Positions 28,495 to 42,064 are shown, numbered from the stretch's first letter. The stretch: 64,000 nucleotides of DNA from Escherichia coli (GCF_044324875.1 NZ_CP172186.1); one strand, 5' to 3'. Numbers and translations are program-made. The notes: a model not told the origin generated them from the sequence alone.

Positions 28495-29280
28495 ATGCAG
28501 CACCTGCCGGCACCGATCCACCATGCCCGGGATGTCGCTCAGCTTCCTGTTGCCATCGATTATCCGGCAGCGCTGGCACTCCGCCAGATGTCGATGGTTC
28601 ATGATGAACTGCCAAAATACCTGCTGGCCCCTGAAGTGAGCGCCCTGCTCCATTACGTCCCGGATCTGCGCCGCAAGATGCTGCTGGCCACACTGTGGAA
28701 CACCGGTGCGCGCATTAATGAAGCACTGGCGCTGACGCGGGGGGATTTTTCGCTTGCGCCCCCGTATCCGTTTGTGCAGCTGGCCACTCTGAAGCAGCGG
28801 ACAGAAAAAGCCGCCAGGACGGCAGGAAGAATGCCCGCCGGTCAGCAGACTCACCGGCTGGTTCCGCTTTCCGACACCTGGTACCTCAGCCAGCTGCAGA
28901 CGATGGTGGCCACACTGAAAATCCCCATGGAACGGCGTAATAAACGAACAGGCAGGACAGAGAAAGCGCGGATCTGGGAAGTGACGGACAGAACGGTCAG
29001 GACCTGGATTGGGGAGGCGGTTGCCGCCGCTGCCGCTGATGGTGTGACGTTCTCTGTCCCGGTCACGCCACATACGTTCCGCCATTCCTATGCGATGCAC
29101 ATGCTGTATGCCGGTATACCGCTGAAGGTCCTGCAGAGCCTGATGGGGCATAAGTCCATCAGCTCAACGGAGGTCTACACGAAGGTGTTTGCACTGGATG
29201 TCGCGGCGCGCCATCGTGTGCAGTTCGCTATGCCGGAAGCCGATGCGGTAGCGCTGATAAAACAACTTGAGAGGCGTTAA
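28495..29280 (+). CDS. Tyrosine site-specific recombinase (phage-integrase family)
   Basis: 261 aa; C-terminal HTFRHSYAMHML...LMGHKSISSTEVYTKV (H-x-x-R, H and Y catalytic residues). Confidence 0.8.
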   Translation: MQHLPAPIHHARDVAQLPVAIDYPAALALRQMSMVHDELPKYLLAPEVSALLHYVPDLRRKMLLATLWNTGARINEALALTRGDFSLAPPYPFVQLATLKQRTEKAARTAGRMPAGQQTHRLVPLSDTWYLSQLQTMVATLKIPMERRNKRTGRTEKARIWEVTDRTVRTWIGEAVAAAAADGVTFSVPVTPHTFRHSYAMHMLYAGIPLKVLQSLMGHKSISSTEVYTKVFALDVAARHRVQFAMPEADAVALIKQLERR

Positions 29281-29519
29281 AAAGCCGTATTCGCGGTTCA
29301 GTCAAGGGGGAGCTGGTGCATCCATCTGTGGAAGATAGAGCACCAAACTCATAGAGGCCACGTTCTCAGGCCAGAACAGTCTTATATCTCTGGCGCTGAC
29401 AACCCATAGTACTTGCCTGGATGGGAAACTCTTCTTGTGCTGAGCGTAAGAGCCATCTGCCGGAACGCTTCCTCGCCAGTTCGCTCGCTACGCACAGTTA
29501 CATGGCTGCGGCGAGGGCT

Positions 29520-29880
29520 GCCTGATTCTAATAATGATATTTCAGCATGATAGCAGCAATAAAATAGATTGCAGCTATCATGCTGTACACATACGGCCTA
29601 GCGCTCTGCTTATGTTATGCTATCTGCAATCTTGCGGCAATCTTGCTTCATCTGTCGATGCGATTCTGAATGAGGTTTCTTTTATTGTTAACGTGACACA
29701 AGTATTCGGCTGTCAATTCCAGCACTCTGCTAAGTAGCAAGATTTAATCTTGCTACTAGATTTTTTATTGTTGCAATCTTGCTGCAAGCTGTTATCTTGT
29801 TCTGGAAGAGTTACTCTACCTAACCTCAATCTGGTTTATATTGATGTTTGCTGCAAGATAGCAGCAAGTAAAGGGGGCTA
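29520..29880. promoter_or_regulatory. Array of TTGCTGCAAGAT-like repeats upstream of parA (centromere/operator-like)
   Basis: At least 8 direct and inverted copies of GCAATCTTGC / TTGCTGCAAGAT in 360 bp. Confidence 0.55.
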
Positions 29881-29881
29881 A

Positions 29882-30514
29882 ATGGCCTGGATAGTTGGTT
29901 TTATTTCTCAGAAAGGTGGTGTGGGCAAAAGCACTAAAGCGAGAGCGTTAGCGCGTGAAGCATCCGCCTGTGGTATCAAAACAAAATTAGCTGATCTCGA
30001 CTTGGAACAGGCAACGAGTGCTGAGTGGCATCGTAGACGTCTGTCAGCTGGTTTGTCACCGGTTGCTTCAGTTGAAGTGTTTTCAACAGCAAAGCAGGCG
30101 ATAGAATCTGCCGGCGATTTTGACCTTCTGATTCTTGATGGCCCTGCTCGTGCAAGTAAAGGTACTTCAGAAATTGCTAAGGTCGCCGACCTTATCGTCC
30201 AGCCAACGGGGGCCTCCCTTGACGATCTTGTCCCGGCAATTAAAGTTTTCAACGCGTTGGTAAAAGAAGGTATACCACGTTCAAAACTGGTCTTCGCTTT
30301 AAGCCGGGTAGGTACCGAAGCGGAAGAGCTGGATGCTCGTGCATATATCAGTGAAGCAGGTTATGAAACTTTATCTGGATGCCTTTTTGAGAAGCCAGCA
30401 TACAGAAAAGCGATGAATTCAGGACTCGCTGTGACAGAAACACGTTATAAAGGTTTAAACGAGAGAGCTGATGAACTTATCCAGGCACTCATCGATAAGA
30501 TTGGAGAAGAGTAA
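29882..30514 (+). CDS. parA: ParA-family partition ATPase (small, type Ib)
   Basis: 210 aa; deviant Walker A KGGVGKST. Confidence 0.85.
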   Translation: MAWIVGFISQKGGVGKSTKARALAREASACGIKTKLADLDLEQATSAEWHRRRLSAGLSPVASVEVFSTAKQAIESAGDFDLLILDGPARASKGTSEIAKVADLIVQPTGASLDDLVPAIKVFNALVKEGIPRSKLVFALSRVGTEAEELDARAYISEAGYETLSGCLFEKPAYRKAMNSGLAVTETRYKGLNERADELIQALIDKIGEE

Positions 30515-30888
30515 TGGCTGATGCGTCAAAACTTAGAACTAAAAGAACCCGTAGTGGGTTGGGGGTACCCCCGGGCCCCGACGAAGTGGCTACCAGCTTG
30601 AATGCGCCTGAGATAGCTCCGGCTGTCGCTGCCACTGATGTTCAGAGACAACAGGCAGACTCATCGCCAGTGCACCATGAGCCTGTGGTTACGCAAACTG
30701 TGACCGAGGTATATACCCGCCGCGATGGCCGTTCTGCCAGAAAAACAAACAGGACGCTGGCATTTGCAACACGTGTCACACCTGCTTTCGACCAAGAGAT
30801 CCGGGATATCGCAGAGCGTGAGGGGTTGAAACTGGTGGAAGTTCTGGAAAAAGCAGTTGAGGCATATAAGGAAAAACAGGGCTATTAA
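30514..30888 (+). CDS. Small centromere-binding protein, ParG/ParB-like (C-terminal RHH-like)
   Basis: 124 aa; translationally coupled to parA; basic N-terminus. Confidence 0.6.
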   Translation: MADASKLRTKRTRSGLGVPPGPDEVATSLNAPEIAPAVAATDVQRQQADSSPVHHEPVVTQTVTEVYTRRDGRSARKTNRTLAFATRVTPAFDQEIRDIAEREGLKLVEVLEKAVEAYKEKQGY

Positions 30889-30894
30889 TCCGGG

Positions 30895-31000
30895 ATGCAG
30901 CAATCTTGCTGCATTCTTTTTTTGTGTGCAATCTTGCAGCAAGATTTATGCTAGATAAATGCTAGATTGCTGCAAGATAAATGATATAATGCTCAAATTG
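30895..31000. repeat. Second cluster of the GCAATCTTGC-type repeats downstream of the ParA operon
   Basis: GCAGCAATCTTGCTGCA, GCAATCTTGCAGCAAGAT, GATTGCTGCAAGATAA. Confidence 0.55.
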
Positions 31001-31110
31001 AGTAGTTAACTGCCCCAGGTAAGTACGCAGCTTGAGTACTTACCTGTGGTTTATGAACGTATTTACTTAATGTGAGTAGTTATTGGGTGAAGATTAATAC
31101 TCAAATTGAG
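31000..31110. promoter_or_regulatory. parC-like repeats upstream of parM (ParR binding site / promoter)
   Basis: Repeated CTCAAATTGAGTA / GAGTAGTTA motifs in the 110 bp before parM. Confidence 0.5.
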
Positions 31111-31126
31111 TATAAATGGAGATGGT

Positions 31127-32101
31127 ATGAGAATTTTTTGCGATGATGGTTCTACAAATGTGAAACTTGCCTGGTTTGAAGGCAAGACGCTGAAAAGTGC
31201 GGTATCAGTGAACTCTTTTCGCCATAACTGGAAAGTCGAGGGCTTAGGCAGCAGTCGTACCTATAACTATTTGCTTGATGGCCGTAAATATACCTACGAC
31301 CCGGTCAGCGAAGATGCGATCAGCACGACTCATATTGAGTATCAGTACTCTGATACAAATGTGTTGGCAGTTCACCACGCATTACTGAACAGTGGAATTG
31401 AACCCCAGGAGATCGATCTCACCGTTACGTTACCTATCAGCGAGTTTTACACGGCCGACTGCCAGAAAAATACGCTTAACATTGAGAGAAAAATTCGCAA
31501 CCTGATGCGGGAAGTCACCCTGAACAAAGGGGGAACTTTTACCATTAAAAGCGTTGAAGTGATGCCTGAATCACTCCCGGCTGTATTTACTCGCCTAGTT
31601 GCTGACAATGTTGGTCAGTACGAAAAATCATTGGTTATCGATCTCGGTGGTACAACTCTGGATGTCGGGGTTATTGTTGGCCAGTTTGAGGATGTTTCGG
31701 CTGTACATGGTAATCCTGATATTGGTGTATCAATGGTCACGAAAGCCACGCTCACTGCACTGAAAATGGCCAGCAGTGATACCAGTCCAATGATTGCTGA
31801 CGAGTTGATCAAAAACAGGAAGAACCTGGATTTTGTGGGGCAGGTTGTAAATGAGGTTTCTAAACTAAATCTGGTGCTGGATACCATTGATACAGCGATA
31901 AATAAACTGGGCGAGCTAGTTGTTGATGATTTGCTGCAGTATCGAAACGTAAACCGCGTATATATTGTCGGAGGCGGGGCTGCACTCATTGCTGATGCTG
32001 TTCGTAAGGCATGGAACCACCTTGGCGAAAAGGTGGTTCTTATGGATGAACCTCAGACAGCGCTGGTCCAGGCTATTGCACGCTTCAAAGCGGAGGAGTA
32101 A
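31127..32101 (+). CDS. parM: ParM/StbA actin-like partition ATPase
   Basis: MRIFCDDGSTNVKLAWF... resembles R1 ParM MLVFIDDGSTNIKLQW...; 324 aa from ATG 31127. Confidence 0.85.
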   Translation: MRIFCDDGSTNVKLAWFEGKTLKSAVSVNSFRHNWKVEGLGSSRTYNYLLDGRKYTYDPVSEDAISTTHIEYQYSDTNVLAVHHALLNSGIEPQEIDLTVTLPISEFYTADCQKNTLNIERKIRNLMREVTLNKGGTFTIKSVEVMPESLPAVFTRLVADNVGQYEKSLVIDLGGTTLDVGVIVGQFEDVSAVHGNPDIGVSMVTKATLTALKMASSDTSPMIADELIKNRKNLDFVGQVVNEVSKLNLVLDTIDTAINKLGELVVDDLLQYRNVNRVYIVGGGAALIADAVRKAWNHLGEKVVLMDEPQTALVQAIARFKAEE

Positions 32102-32104
32102 TCG

Positions 32105-32497
32105 ATGTACGACGGCGAAGAAAGGAAAAAACTTTCACTCTACCTTCACCCGGAGGACTCTGCCGATTGTCTTGCACTGGCTGAAATCGAAACTGTTCCC
32201 CGGAAAAAACGGGGGGAGTTATATCGGCAGGCTTTGATAACCGGCCTGATAATGCATCAGCTTGATGAGAGAATTCCCGCCGTGTTAACCGCGCTATTCA
32301 CCAGAGAACTGAATGCGGATGAGGTCATTAGTCAGATTGCCAGGATAACAGGCTGGAAACCCTCCTCCGGTGATTTAAAAGAGGTACTGAAGGCGTTGGG
32401 AGGGCTTCAGAGTACAGTTTCACCAGAACTCTCTCAGGATGACGGTGAACAGGCCCGTCTGAAAGCGGCTAGGGTGAAGATGCAAAACCTAATCTAA
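32105..32497 (+). CDS. parR: ParR/StbB partition adaptor
   Basis: 130 aa immediately downstream of parM; N-terminal RHH-like region. Confidence 0.7.
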   Translation: MYDGEERKKLSLYLHPEDSADCLALAEIETVPRKKRGELYRQALITGLIMHQLDERIPAVLTALFTRELNADEVISQIARITGWKPSSGDLKEVLKALGGLQSTVSPELSQDDGEQARLKAARVKMQNLI

Positions 32498-32652
32498 AAA
32501 AGTCTCGCTCCGTGAAACCTGCAAAATTTCTCGGGGTGTGCGGCTTAATTTTTAGATTTCCGCGTTTCCCGTCATTTGAGTCAATGGAGTGCTGGTTGAC
32601 AGCTCCCTGCTCTGAAGGACGGGGATTCCCACATATGCAGCCAGATTTCCGG

Positions 32653-32760
32653 CTAGTGTGGTTTCAGACGTTGTTCGATTTCATTCTGTAGCGCCTGAAG
32701 TGTGCCTGATTTGAGGTTTTTTGTGCTCTGGCGGTCGAAAAGAATTTCAATGCGGATCAT
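32653..32760 (-). CDS. DinI-like small ORF (35 codons before an in-frame TAG)
   Basis: MIRIEILFDRQSTKNLKSGTLQALQNEIEQRLKPH*; SD AGGGAG 9 nt upstream; read-through would give ...MWESPS...; LexA box in promoter. Confidence 0.4.
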   Translation of the reverse strand: MIRIEILFDRQSTKNLKSGTLQALQNEIEQRLKPH

Positions 32761-38920: not shown

Positions 38921-41581
38921 GTGCGCCGTTGAAGCGCGGTGTTTTATGGAGTGTTGCCTGAAAAGCAACATGGCTTAGTGGTATAGCCATTGCATACTGT
39001 GGTTAGCCTTGCTTGGTAACAGGCTCGGAGATCCTGAAAAGGAGAGGTGAACATAGCATCCACAGAAAAGGGTGGTGAATATGGAAATCGTTATAAGTAT
39101 CACCATTCAATGCAAGATGTATATGGATAAACTGGGTTTGTTGAAGTCGAGATCTATGTGGGAAACAGGAAACCAATAACGCAGAACGATTGAAGCGTTA
39201 TTCCCGTACTAGCACAAGAAATCCGTCCGACGTTGATTGTGACCACTCTAACGGGCCAGCTATTGATGAAATAGTTAAACGATCGAAAGACATCCTAAGT
39301 ACATCGCATCTCCACACCGTGAAACTACGGGACTACCTAAACTGGATTTATACCCAGCATGGTAGCGGAGTCTCCATAGTACTCAAGGTCGGCCTGTAAT
39401 GGGTTCCGGCAGTCCGCATTATACGGAAGCAGCAAAGGTATAAATCAACCGGAAGGAAGATGAAAGCCTCACAGTGCTGCGGGGAAGGGAGACAGTTGTT
39501 AGATACATCAATCTCTAAGAGGAGGGTTAGCCAATGCTGCCTGATGAACTTGAGAAAAGATTAGATGGAATTGAGGATGCTTCAAAAAAAGGGTATCCAG
39601 TACGTAATCTATACAAAATTGCGTGTGAGCCCGGACTGTGGCTGCAAGCCTACGTGAATATACGGGCCAATGCAGGTGCACTGACTCAAGGTGTATCAAC
39701 AGATACCATTGATGGCTTTTCTATCGAAAGAGCAGAGAAGCTGGCAAAAACATTGCGGAGTAGAGAATACGTAGCGAAACCTGTACGCAGAGTTCAGATC
39801 CCAAAAAAGGACGGAAAAACCAGACCGCTGGGGATTCCAGGTGGAGACGATAAACTGGCGCAAGAAGTAGCAAGAATTATTCTGGAAAGGGTTTATGAAC
39901 CAGTATTCTCTGAACACTCTCATGGATTCAGACCAAAACGTTCGTGTGAAACTGCGCTCAGATCTATTCGTCCAGTCTGGAACGGAGTTAAATGGATCGT
40001 GGATGTTGATATCAAAGGTTTCTTTGACAATATCCCCCACAAACTATTGCTGAATACACTGGCAGAGAAAATTAAGGATAAGAATTTCCTGAAATTAATC
40101 GAACAGTGGCTGAAGGCAGGATATGTGGACAATTGGAAATACCATCGCTCATATTCTGGCACGCCACAAGGTGGGATAATTTCTCCCTTACTGGCAAATA
40201 TATACCTCGACAAACTGGACCGTTTTGTAGAACAGAATTTAATTCCTGCATATACAAGCGGTACAAAACGAAGAGCGAATCCAGATATGAACAGGCTGGC
40301 CCATAAGATTCATAAACTACGAAAGAAAGTAGACGGTATGGCAACTGATTCTGAATCAGAAAAAGAAGCCATAAAGAAAGAAATTGAACGACTGCTTGAA
40401 GAAAAACGTTCTATACCATCTCAGGTCATGAACGATCCAAACTTCAGGCGTATGTACTATGTTCGATATGCTGATGACTTCGTAATCGGTGTCATCGGCT
40501 CGAAGAAAGATGCTGAACATATATCAAGACAGGTCAGAAACTTTATTACTACTTCACTGGGATTGGAAGTTAATGAAGCAAAGACCAGGATCCGCCATAT
40601 CTCAGAAGGAGTTAATTTTTTAGGCTATGAAATCAGACAGGCAGATGCAAAGAAATTGCTGAAGCAGAAAATGCAAGGGCGGCACGCTCTCCGGAGATCC
40701 ACCACAGGAATTGTGCAGCTCTTCGTTCCTGACAATATAGCCGCTAAATTTTGTCACCAAAAGAAATATGGCTGTTATGAGAATGTGAAGGCTGTACATC
40801 GTTCAAGTCTACAAAATCTCAGTGAAGCTGAAATTGTTCTGACTTTCAACGCGGAAATGCGCGGATTGGCGAACTACTACAGTCTGGCGCTGGACATGAA
40901 ATATAAATTATCAAAATTATATTTCATATGGCAAATAAGCCTTTTTAAGACCCTGGCGAATAAACGACGTAGTTCAGTGAATAAAGTCGCCAAATCGCTA
41001 CGGCAAAATAATGGAGATCTGGCTATTACCGTTCAGGCCAAAAATGGATCCCGAAAGATTGAGGTTTTCAAACTCAAACATGTCAATCGCAACCGAACAA
41101 CGATTGTCGATACGGAACCGAGAACCGCACATATCACAACCCGCACAACAGAGATCATGCGTCGATTAGGGGCAAGGATCTGCGAGTATTGTGCGAAGAC
41201 TGGGCGCTGCGAAGTACATCATGTCAGAAAGCTAAAAGACCTGAAGAAAGGTCGTAAGGCCGGATATAAACCCAGCTTGTGGCAACTAATGATGATCGCA
41301 CGCCGCCGGAAAACGATGATTTTGTGCGCAAGTTGCCACGACAAGTTACATAGCGGAAAACTACCCGATTTGAGACAGGAAAAGGGAAGAATACTCCTGC
41401 AACCACCTGTCTCAAGCGGGGATTCTGCTAAATGAGTTTATCCCCAATAAGCTAGCAATGGAGAGCCGTATGCACTGAAAGGTGCACGTACGGTTCGGAG
41501 GGGGGGTAACGGTGATCTAACTCAAGATAAGCAGGACATATTCGCCATTTATCTTGAAAGACCACACGTACCCTACCCTAC
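38921..41581 (+). mobile_element. Group II intron (2661 bp) inserted in ssb
   Basis: 5' GTGCG, 3' ...AC; domain V-like hairpin GAGCCGTATGCACTGAAAGGTGCACGTACGGTTC at about 41462; encodes RT/maturase/HNH protein; flanking exons splice in frame. Confidence 0.85.
39534..41435 (+). CDS. Group II intron-encoded protein (reverse transcriptase - maturase - HNH endonuclease)
   Basis: 633 aa; RT motifs incl. YADDFVIGV; C-terminal HNH CEYC...HHV...CASCHDKLH. Confidence 0.9.
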   Translation: MLPDELEKRLDGIEDASKKGYPVRNLYKIACEPGLWLQAYVNIRANAGALTQGVSTDTIDGFSIERAEKLAKTLRSREYVAKPVRRVQIPKKDGKTRPLGIPGGDDKLAQEVARIILERVYEPVFSEHSHGFRPKRSCETALRSIRPVWNGVKWIVDVDIKGFFDNIPHKLLLNTLAEKIKDKNFLKLIEQWLKAGYVDNWKYHRSYSGTPQGGIISPLLANIYLDKLDRFVEQNLIPAYTSGTKRRANPDMNRLAHKIHKLRKKVDGMATDSESEKEAIKKEIERLLEEKRSIPSQVMNDPNFRRMYYVRYADDFVIGVIGSKKDAEHISRQVRNFITTSLGLEVNEAKTRIRHISEGVNFLGYEIRQADAKKLLKQKMQGRHALRRSTTGIVQLFVPDNIAAKFCHQKKYGCYENVKAVHRSSLQNLSEAEIVLTFNAEMRGLANYYSLALDMKYKLSKLYFIWQISLFKTLANKRRSSVNKVAKSLRQNNGDLAITVQAKNGSRKIEVFKLKHVNRNRTTIVDTEPRTAHITTRTTEIMRRLGARICEYCAKTGRCEVHHVRKLKDLKKGRKAGYKPSLWQLMMIARRRKTMILCASCHDKLHSGKLPDLRQEKGRILLQPPVSSGDSAK

Positions 41582-42064
41582 CGTCTGGGCAATGATCCGG
41601 AAGTCTGTTACATCCCCAACGGGGGCGCAGTGGCAAACCTGCAGGTCGCCACGTCAGAAAGCTGGCGCGACAAACAGACGGGGGAGATGCGGGAGCAGAC
41701 GGAATGGCACCGCGTGGTGCTGTTCGGCAAGCTCGCGGAAGTGGCTGGTGAATATCTGCGCAAGGGCGCGCAGGTCTACATCGAGGGGCAACTCCGTACC
41801 CGTAGCTGGGAGGATAACGGTATCACCCGTTACGTCACTGAAATTCTTGTTAAGACCACGGGCACCATGCAGATGCTGGGGAGTGCACCACAGCAGAACG
41901 CTCAGGCGCAACCGAAGCCTCAGCAGAATGGGCAGCCACAGAGTGCTGACGCGACGAAAAAAGGTGGCGCGAAAACGAAAGGCCGTGGACGTAAGGCCGC
42001 GCAGCCGGAGCCTCAGCAGCCGTCTGAACCCGCGTATGACTTCGATGACGACATTCCGTTCTAA
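41582..42064 (+). CDS. ssb: ssb exon 2 (plasmid single-stranded DNA-binding protein, codons 14-173)
   Basis: [35 protein letters not shown]...DDDIPF (acidic C-terminal tail). Confidence 0.85.

Follow-up and report, generated by a model that had tools for sequence, protein, structure and literature searches.

A probable head-to-tail double partition locus on an IncK2/Z I-complex plasmid of Escherichia coli, joining a pB171-type parMRC to an uncharacterised type Ib cassette

Introduction

This study concerns a stretch of 64,000 nucleotides of Escherichia coli DNA (GCF_044324875.1, NZ_CP172186.1), called the window below, in which positions 29520-32497 carry two plasmid partition modules of different types. 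We consider it highly probable that the two together make up a composite ‘double par’ stability locus of an IncK2/Z I-complex conjugative plasmid, consisting of two self-contained partition cassettes joined head to tail. Within the known double par class it stands as a co-directional member, and it combines a parMRC of the pB171 par1 type with an uncharacterised, conventional type Ib cassette. The identities of the genes, the statistics of the repeated boxes, the conservation of the layout and the purifying selection on the proteins are read directly from the DNA, and our account of how the locus might work is built on them.

Results

Two contiguous partition modules of different types

The first-pass annotation of the window had described partition loci of two types lying in tandem and pointing the same way. 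The gene calls together with the Pfam and PDB matches bear this description out, and both modules are intact. The four genes are:

29882-30514, + strand: parA, 210-aa type Ib Walker-type partition ATPase
30514-30888, + strand: candidate for a parB-like centromere-binding protein, 124-aa open reading frame (ORF)
31127-32101, + strand: parM, 324-aa actin-like segregation ATPase
32105-32497, + strand: parR, 130-aa ribbon-helix-helix (RHH) centromere-binding adaptor of the type II system

As annotated, parA encodes a deviant Walker A motif, K11-GGVGK16-ST (KGGVGKS), and is followed by a small partner, the 124-aa ORF sitting on the parA stop codon. The ParA protein is without an N-terminal DNA-binding (helix-turn-helix) domain; it matches CbiA and MipZ in Pfam, aligns with the NCBIfam model NF041546 ParA_partition over positions 1-202 of 203 with 93.6 bits, which is under the cut-off of 180, and finds TP228 ParF (PDB 4dzz) at E 5.4e-7. 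The ATG of the parB-like gene overlaps the stop codon of parA (TAATG), and this overlap suggests translational coupling of the pair. On the type II side, ParM is matched by two Pfam families, both at full length, StbA_N (2e-68, residues 1-155) and ParM_N (3.5e-43, residues 164-318), and by R1 ParM (PDB 1mwk) at 2.6e-82 over residues 1-307, while ParR is matched by Plasmid_stab_B (3e-28) and by the solved pB171 ParR (PDB 2jd3) at 5.4e-34 over residues 2-129. The gap between parB and parM measures 238 bp, in agreement with the earlier statement that parMR follows within 240 bp.

The small partner of ParA

Searches with the 124-aa ParB-like protein gave no match in Pfam or NCBIfam. Its family comprises 243 clusters at E<=1e-3, nearly all of them annotated ‘hypothetical’, and the alignment of 22 homologues reveals a conserved basic N-terminal motif (MADASKLKxKR...LGxPPGPDEVATSLNAPEIAP), then a linker of variable sequence and, strongly conserved again, the C-terminus RRDGRSARKTNRTLAFATRVTPEFDNEIRDIAEREGLKLVEVLEKALEAYK, with a strand-helix-helix region at residues ~79-122. 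The AlphaFold2 (AF2) monomer model of this C-terminus has an extended segment and two helices, 90-103 and 107-122, with a pLDDT of about 86-88, and its top Foldseek matches are CopG, Arc, SvtR and StnY, with rmsd of 0.6-0.9 A over 31-34 columns and E-values of 2.5-7, values not significant for a domain so small. This lack of significance weighs against an assignment to the RHH fold, as do the medium confidence of the model taken as a whole (mean pLDDT 65) and the absence of any PDB match, whether by phmmer or with a 22-sequence profile. The structure model is thus all that the assignment has to go by, because the sequence and profile searches gave nothing usable. Judged by its modelled fold, the partner is likely an RHH protein; the naming of such a partner in the first-pass annotation is consistent with the AF2 model and the fold hits, but is not proven by them.

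Type Ib centromere-binding proteins such as ParG, omega and the ParB of pCXC100 have a flexible N-terminal tail, a C-terminal RHH domain and highly divergent sequences (PMC3074162). The architecture of the ParB-like protein fits this group because of its conserved N-terminal tail, its variable linker and its C-terminal strand-helix-helix region with RHH proteins as top folds.

Arrays of a ten-base-pair box on both sides of parAB

Repeat arrays on both sides of parAB had been reported before, and the box counts agree with them. The heptamer ATCTTGC occurs 16 times in the 64-kb window, 10 of these copies lying in 29629-29859 and 30903-30978, and the octamer TGCAAGAT, with up to one mismatch, has 13 copies in the same two clusters vs 0.69 per kb elsewhere. 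The box is best written GCWGCAAGAT. Exact matches to this form number six in 64 kb, and six of six are inside the two arrays; when up to one mismatch is allowed, 11 matches fall in the about 330 bp of arrays vs 17 in the other 63 kb. No boxes of the GCWGCAAGAT type were found within parA or parB. The boxes, which we refer to as ParB boxes, occur in both orientations and frequently with an 11-bp period (29629/29640, 29850/29861 and 30938/30949/30960/30971). The arrays and their parts, together with the recombinase gene that precedes them, are as follows:

29540-29870, unstranded: upstream ParB-box array, candidate for a parC1-like centromere/operator on the evidence of box counts against background, hairpins and relatives
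29543-29585, unstranded: palindrome of degenerate boxes with 18-nt arms, -25 kcal/mol, z -6.4
29629-29649: direct boxes of the upstream array
29733-29757, unstranded: perfect 12-bp inverted pair of ParB boxes and then the T-run AGATTTTTTA, terminator-like, -14.7 kcal/mol, z -3.8
29776-29790: boxes of the upstream array
29850-29870: two boxes, preceded by a TATATT -10-like hexamer (29837-29842) and followed by the parA Shine-Dalgarno sequence
30896-30981, unstranded: downstream ParB-box array, parC2-like
30897-30912: two inverted boxes of the downstream array
30931-30945: inverted pair of the downstream array
30938, 30949, 30960 and 30971: four direct boxes of the downstream array, 11-bp period
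30892-30924, + strand: intrinsic-terminator-like hairpin from an inverted ParB-box pair, 11-bp stem, 4-nt loop, seven T after 30917
28495-29280, + strand: ResD/Xer-like tyrosine recombinase (integrase), the gene ending 250 bp upstream of the box array

Degenerate boxes make up the palindrome at 29543-29585, so that the left limit of 29520 set in the first-pass annotation is reasonable. The hairpin at 29733-29757 could keep transcription of the integrase gene from running on into parAB. The layout of the upstream array is repeated in five related loci (L004-L007 and L011), and ParB arrays accompany the parAB pair in seven diverged loci altogether. Three of the relatives have parAB without parMR and are still boxed both upstream and downstream, namely those of Enterobacter ludwigii (L004), a Yersinia plasmid (L006) and an IncP-6-like Pseudomonas plasmid (L008, with parC). 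As it is found after parAB loci that have no parMR, the downstream array is to be seen as belonging to the type Ib cassette itself, where it corresponds to pB171 parC2, and not as a product of the junction; the earlier notion of a repeat field ‘shared’ in origin by the two systems is contradicted by the same three loci.

The E. ludwigii locus (L004 3864-5327, NZ_CP099326) shows parAB and its downstream box array followed by TATAAT and a 452-aa ORF in the place of parMR, and this ORF had no match in Pfam.

The nearness of the ResD/Xer-like integrase gene could be taken to mean that the GCWGCAAGAT arrays are sites of a tyrosine recombinase (for dimer resolution), or else replication iterons, and not centromeres. 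Their distribution speaks strongly against both. The arrays travel with parAB and not with the integrase, since the Klebsiella IncFIA locus (L007), with repE upstream, and the Pseudomonas locus, with IS6100 upstream, keep their boxes; pB171-type loci located by an integrase 92% identical to that of the window have entirely different boxes; and the boxes bracket parAB, with a sequence that tracks the ParB family. On these grounds the reading as resolvase sites or iterons was rejected, and we find it hardly credible.

The junction and the promoter-centromere of parMR

The region in which the two cassettes meet contains the following elements in addition to the downstream ParB-box array:

30963-30990, + strand: predicted parMR promoter, TAGATT (-35-like), 16-nt spacer and extended -10 TGaTATAAT (30982-30990)
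30990-31112, unstranded: type II parC, four 15-bp palindromic ParR boxes, B1 30990-31004, B2 31024-31038, B3 31064-31078 and B4 31098-31112
31117-31120: parM Shine-Dalgarno GGAG

The ParR-type 15-bp palindrome TACTCAAATTGAGTA, with up to three mismatches, has 5 sites in the window vs about 0.9 strand-matches expected. The earlier annotation was right to give parMR repeats of its own, although it saw only the best two of the four ParR boxes that lie in the gap. These boxes are spaced 34, 40 and 34 bp and span the predicted transcription start and the leader. The last ParB box ends at 30978 and ParR box 1 begins at 30990, with the -10 hexamer held in the 11-bp gap between them, and the two sets of boxes abut without interleaving, just as the ParA-type repeats had been said to abut the ParMR centromere. 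Overlap exists instead between ParB boxes and the predicted promoter: the -35-like TAGATT is itself part of a ParB box, and the exact ParB box at 30969-30978 fills the spacer. The same order of ParB boxes, TAGATT, 16-18 nt, TAT(A/G)AT and ParR box 1 is found in the Klebsiella locus L007, in Enterobacter cloacae (L005) and in Salmonella (L011), and the pB171-type parC1 likewise has its -10 directly upstream of ParR box 1. That the consensus scanner missed the parMR promoter is attributable to its weak -35.

Within the predicted parMR leader, a hairpin at 31013-31049 contains ParR box B2 (-21.2 kcal/mol, z -4.2, no T-run behind); by eye, L007 retains it only in part, and L005 and L011 have no evident counterpart.

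Whether the four genes are transcribed as one unit bears on the meaning of this junction. Let us suppose that there is a single four-gene operon driven from the parAB promoter and that the intergenic repeats are centromeres only. The one orientation and the short gaps would agree with such an arrangement, and the scanner finds no strong consensus promoter in the 238-bp gap. Against it stands the hairpin placed directly after parB. The window's own copy, 30892-30917 (-18.1 kcal/mol, z -3.1), was flagged in the terminator scan, and a hairpin with a run of five to seven T right after the parB stop occurs in six enterobacterial lineages (the window, L007, L004, L005, L011 and L006) with stems of different sequence. 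Against it stand, too, the extended -10 TGaTATAAT, which immediately precedes ParR box 1 and is placed there as it is in the pB171-type parC1, and the case of parMR occurring alone in Klebsiella (L017) with a similar upstream region; the pB171-type parMR must have a promoter of its own because it is transcribed divergently from parAB. We thus hold the single operon to be quite improbable. The hairpin at 30892-30924 is predicted to be the end of the parAB transcript, and because a terminator-like hairpin with a T-run is conserved after parB, parAB and parMR are probably separate transcription units.

A ParR-like box inside parM

The fifth match to the ParR palindrome is located within a coding sequence:

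31327-31341, unstranded: intragenic ParR-like box GACTCATATTGAGTA (also as ACTCATATTGAGTAT), ~200 bp into parM, at codons T-H-I-E-Y

Its codons ACT CAT ATT GAG TAT are nucleotide-identical in six ParM genes (the window, the pB171-type copy L003, L005, L011, Leclercia L015 and Hafnia L016), the proteins of which are 67-79% identical and the synonymous sites of which are otherwise saturated. When four genes were compared, 36 of the 197 codons with an invariant amino acid were invariant as codons, and the box was the sole run of three or more of them. It is absent from the more distant ParM genes of the pKPN3 type and of R621a. This pattern of codon identity suggests that 31327-31341 may be a fifth, intragenic ParR site.

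One plasmid site, three par layouts

A single type of plasmid site, delimited by a ResD-like integrase on one side and umuDC/DUF1281 on the other, holds three par layouts. The tandem order ParA-ParB>ParM-ParR is that of the window, of E. cloacae (L005) and of Salmonella (L011-L014); the divergent pB171-type order is found in L003, Leclercia (L015) and Hafnia (L016); and parMR alone, with a similar upstream region, is found in Klebsiella (L017). The ParM proteins of L005 and L011 are 79% identical to pB171 ParM vs 72% to that of the window, and their ParA proteins are 86-89% identical to the window ParA. As the similarities of ParM and ParA are incongruent, the type Ib partner of this parMR family must have been exchanged at least once, and the comparison suggests that the type Ib module is swapped as a cassette at the site.

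The four-gene tandem unit was found in 319 PLSDB records when the query was the junction, from the 3' end of parB to the 5' end of parM, and the whole locus at >=80% query cover in 302 PLSDB records; at the same cover, 123 of 5426 complete E. coli genomes carry the whole locus, plasmid-borne every time. The parA-parB gene pair is kept in 460 PLSDB records. Plasmids with the tandem version include IncK2/Z, IncI-gamma/K1, pCoo-like, Klebsiella and Salmonella plasmids, the four-gene unit of the Salmonella lineage having ~60% ParB identity. Between the window and L005 the proteins are 89% (ParA), 67% (ParB), 72% (ParM) and 46% (ParR) identical, substitution at synonymous sites has reached or nearly reached saturation (pS 0.74-0.82), and dN/dS, in the genes where it was computable, is 0.06 for parB and 0.16 for parR. 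By these measures of sequence divergence all four genes are intact and under purifying selection.

This last result has to be set against the thought that only one of the two systems partitions the plasmid and that the other is a redundant passenger being lost. Some relatives do seem to offer examples, and a minority of them has lost parMR. In Klebsiella IncFIA (L007 3876-4105, NZ_CP023918), an IS3-family insertion just after ParR box 2 cut off parMR, leaving parAB, both arrays and a stub of the parMR promoter. A single type Ib parAB suffices in other I-complex plasmids, as transposon-directed insertion-site sequencing (TraDIS) of pMS7163B indicates (PMC10286972), and in the case of pESBL, plasmid loss after deletion of the par system became detectable only when toxin-antitoxin and transfer functions had been removed as well (PMC7602700). 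The window, for its part, has four full-length ORFs whose proteins are conserved while synonymous sites are at or near saturation; the four-gene unit persists in the 319 plasmids, and also in lineages whose ParB identity is as low as 60-67%; and the ParR boxes, the intragenic one included, are conserved at the nucleotide level. Taken together, these make a passenger very unlikely.

Comparison with pB171

Double partition loci were already mentioned in the first-pass annotation as a group for comparison. The comparison puts the locus in the same class as that of pB171, with a different orientation and different type Ib proteins. The double par locus of the E. coli virulence plasmid pB171 reportedly consists of par1, which is parMR, and par2, which is parAB. 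A pB171-type copy (L003), found by a search with the 2jd3 ParR sequence, stands for pB171 in our comparisons; it has parB and parA running leftward and parM and parR running rightward from a central 228-bp region.

The likenesses are several. Type Ib and type II systems are directly adjacent on one plasmid (with the 238-bp gap in the window), and a ResD-like integrase lies alongside, that of L003 having 92% amino-acid identity to the window's. The window ParM is 66.6% and the ParR 46% identical to those of L003. The pB171-type parC1 has the same ParR box, CTCAAATTGAGTA / CTCAGATTGAGTA (GCTCAAATTGAGTA, ACTCAGATTGAGTA), just after a -10-like hexamer, and in both cases box arrays flank the type Ib operon on either side, with type Ib boxes adjoining the parMR promoter.

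The differences lie mainly in the orientation and in the type Ib half. The operons of pB171 diverge from a central parC1 that bears the promoters; those of the window are both on the + strand in tandem, and the junction is one where the downstream array and terminator of parAB meet the parC/promoter of parMR. The window ParA is only 29% (BLAST) or 32% (global alignment) identical to that of pB171, and the ParB has 124 aa vs 91 aa in pB171. The ParB boxes are unrelated, GCWGCAAGAT in the window vs TGAAGTATGA-like repeats (by eye) in the pB171-type parC1, and the ParR boxes number four in the window vs two in pB171.

Other partition systems

Among the more distant relatives of the type Ib half are the IncP-6/IncG parABC loci (Rms149, pCOL-1 and p10265-KPC), to which plasmid parAB loci of Xanthomonas and Yersinia are related, all with the same ParA/ParB family. 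Compared with the Pseudomonas IncP-6-like plasmid, the window ParA is 62% and the ParB 45% identical, and the ParA of a Yersinia plasmid of pYV size is 78% identical to that of the window. GCWGCTAGAT-like boxes, drifted in sequence from those of the window, flank the operon in the IncP-6-like plasmid and its relatives. The IncP-6/IncG loci differ from the window in having a third gene, parC, and no parMR, and the terminator-like hairpin is weaker in L008.

A more general resemblance is to the systems of pESBL, pMS7163B and R621a, also of the I-complex, which have a small ParA, a motif-less ParB of ~100 aa and short direct and inverted boxes on both sides. For these systems, partition function and binding of ParB to the boxes have been shown experimentally (PMC7602700; PMC10286972). 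Their ParA is only 26% identical to the window's, their ParB gave no match and their box is another one, the parS octamer GATAACAA; R621a differs further in that its parMR is not adjacent to parAB. The possibility that the window locus is the TraDIS-defined parAB of pMS7163B or the pESBL system was accordingly rejected, those systems having ParA at 26% identity and GATAACAA/TTGTTATC repeats. Runs of TTGTTATC lie on both sides of parAB in pMS7163B (L010 3833-4051 and 4978-5060), likewise in R621a, and as TTGTTATC is the reverse complement of the pESBL parS octamer, these two plasmids carry a pESBL-type centromere.

TP228 ParF-ParG-parH and pSM19035 delta-omega share with the window the general design of a small ParA, a centromere-binding protein with a flexible N-terminal tail and a C-terminal RHH domain (a modelled fold in the case of the window), and arrays of short repeats. 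They are unlike it in that their centromere-binding proteins have no detectable sequence similarity to the ParB-like protein and in that each stands as a single locus, with no type II system next to it. The type II half is like R1/R100 parMRC (stbAB), which has an actin-like ParM, an RHH ParR and repeats at its own promoter. R1 parC consists of ten 11-bp iterons flanking the promoter. The window parC, with four 15-bp palindromes all downstream of the -10, departs from the R1 layout and resembles pB171 par1.

As for precedents, a count of PLSDB plasmids gave 971 in which a type I RHH-ParB system is paired with one of type II, a pairing described there as previously reported (PMC13245405), and the layout with short-box arrays on both sides of a type Ib operon is documented for pB171 and pESBL (PMC7602700).

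Plasmid setting

Plasmid pLH50-c-A, from poultry E. coli, is 100% identical to window positions 29300-32600; it is typed as IncK2/Z, MOBP and MPF_I and as conjugative. The par locus is placed in the maintenance region. On its 5' side are relE/parE-type and vapBC toxin-antitoxin pairs, and on its 3' side starts the leading region for conjugation, which includes DUF1281, a methylase, ardA, ssb and psiB. The genes on both sides share the + strand with the par genes.

Several observations on the surroundings may be recorded here. Between the integrase gene and the box array is a stretch of ~115 bp (29420-29535; gatgggaaactcttcttgtgctgagcgtaag...ggctgcctgattctaata) with a counterpart in L007 at ~2320-2440, beside which L007 has repE and not an integrase; the stretch might belong to the par cassette or serve as a site for a recombinase. 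A 652-aa gene of the ParB/RepB/Spo0J family, at ~39756-41714 (+) as mapped from L002 30457-32415, is located in the leading region between ssb and psiB, outside the double par locus. It appears to correspond to ‘parB_2’ of pMS7163B, a gene dispensable for maintenance by TraDIS and harmful when overexpressed (PMC10286972). On the - strand at 32653-32760 is a 35-aa ORF (MIRIEILFDRQSTKNLKSGTLQALQNEIEQRLKPH), at the site of which a related record annotates a 59-aa ‘hypothetical protein’, WP_000618107.1, with an accession near that of the DinI-like protein of pMS7163B; the ORF may be the remnant of a DinI-like (impC) gene. Because umuDC comes after parR in L005, L011, L015 and L016, the lineage of the window appears to have lost its SOS-mutagenesis genes by deletion.

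Discussion

Our consideration of how the tandem locus works, that is, of binding, termination, promoter use, cross-repression and partition activity, is inferred from the elements described above and from what is known of their relatives. ParA would bind the nucleoid as an ATP dimer. The C-terminal RHH dimer of ParB would bind the arrays of the ~10-bp GCWGCAAGAT box on both sides of the operon, and its basic N-terminal tail would stimulate ParA, so that plasmids would be spaced over the nucleoid. The upstream array, which lies over the parAB promoter/leader, would provide autoregulation, and the first palindrome of the downstream array would double as the parAB terminator. ParR, on its side, would bind the four palindromic boxes in the promoter/leader (parC) and autorepress its operon, while ParM filaments would push paired plasmids apart.

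The two cassettes might also be connected at the level of transcription. ParB probably lowers the expression of parMR as well, given that its last boxes fall within the -35/spacer of the parMR promoter. Bound there, it would hinder RNA polymerase, and ParR on box 1 would mask the start of transcription. Cross-repression of parMR by ParB is plausible given this placement of the boxes, and the coupled regulation of the two operons proposed in the first-pass annotation is, seen this way, a reasonable inference. The ParB of pB171 is said to repress the non-cognate par1 promoter.

One may take this line of thought further and regard the downstream array as one compact element with three functions, serving as the parAB terminator, as a second centromere and as an operator through which ParB would control how much of the type II system is made. 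In that case the two motors would be arranged in a hierarchy and not be redundant, with parMR expressed mainly at low levels of ParB, such as those right after entry by conjugation, and with the ParR box within parM extending the type II centromere into the coding region. The idea of expression upon conjugative entry comes from the fact that the locus borders the leading region and has the same orientation. We offer this extended scheme tentatively and regard it as rather doubtful.

The cross-repression step is also the only one with which the following alternative conflicts. The two cassettes might simply be independent neighbours without regulatory coupling, joined by modular recombination at a plasmid ‘stability hot-spot’, the array being a second centromere and terminator only. 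The presence of the downstream array without parMR in L004, L006 and L008 would be expected of such neighbours. The three arrangements at one site, including a pB171-type locus beside a 92% identical integrase, would agree with it as well, as would the L005 and L011 loci, where ParM is nearer to pB171 while ParA is near to the window, pointing to module swapping. What speaks for a regulatory connection is that the ParB boxes reach into the -35/spacer of parMR in three diverged tandem lineages, and that in L004 the array is likewise followed by TATAAT and another gene, suggesting that the array is commonly an operator for the gene downstream. We take the alternative of independent neighbours seriously, while leaning somewhat away from it.

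The reading of the locus as a composite of two functional cassettes under partly common control has further points to answer for, and they are best considered together. The consensus promoter scan reported neither of the par promoters; their positions were read by eye and are supported by conservation only, and that of the parAB promoter is tentatively placed. The overlap of ParB boxes with the parMR promoter is weaker in L005 than in the window. As parAB persists without parMR in Klebsiella IncFIA, the tandem pair is not obligatory and the type Ib cassette can stand alone. Between the ParB proteins of the window and of pB171 there was no BLAST hit, and hhalign gave a probability of 0.15%. Lastly, a literature search by protein accession and keyword found no paper on the tandem unit, on its ParA/ParB pair or on the ParB family. 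All of these count against the proposed reading.

Irrespective of the details of the regulation, the composite double par locus has implications for how plasmids of this group are understood. Double partition loci are a known route to inheritance for large low-copy virulence and resistance plasmids, and the current picture of the partition mechanism is left unchanged by the tandem locus. The ParA/ParB pair described here appears to be uncharacterised, its ParB being without a Pfam or NCBIfam model, and naming the ParB family together with its box would improve plasmid annotation and help in predicting partition-based incompatibility. A survey of 2023 reported about 15% of I-complex plasmids to be without any of four reference partition systems (PMC10286972), and the tandem locus may account for part of these. 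The series of arrangements at one site, tandem, divergent and parMR alone, would offer a comparative system for the coordination of Walker-type and actin-type segregation machines.

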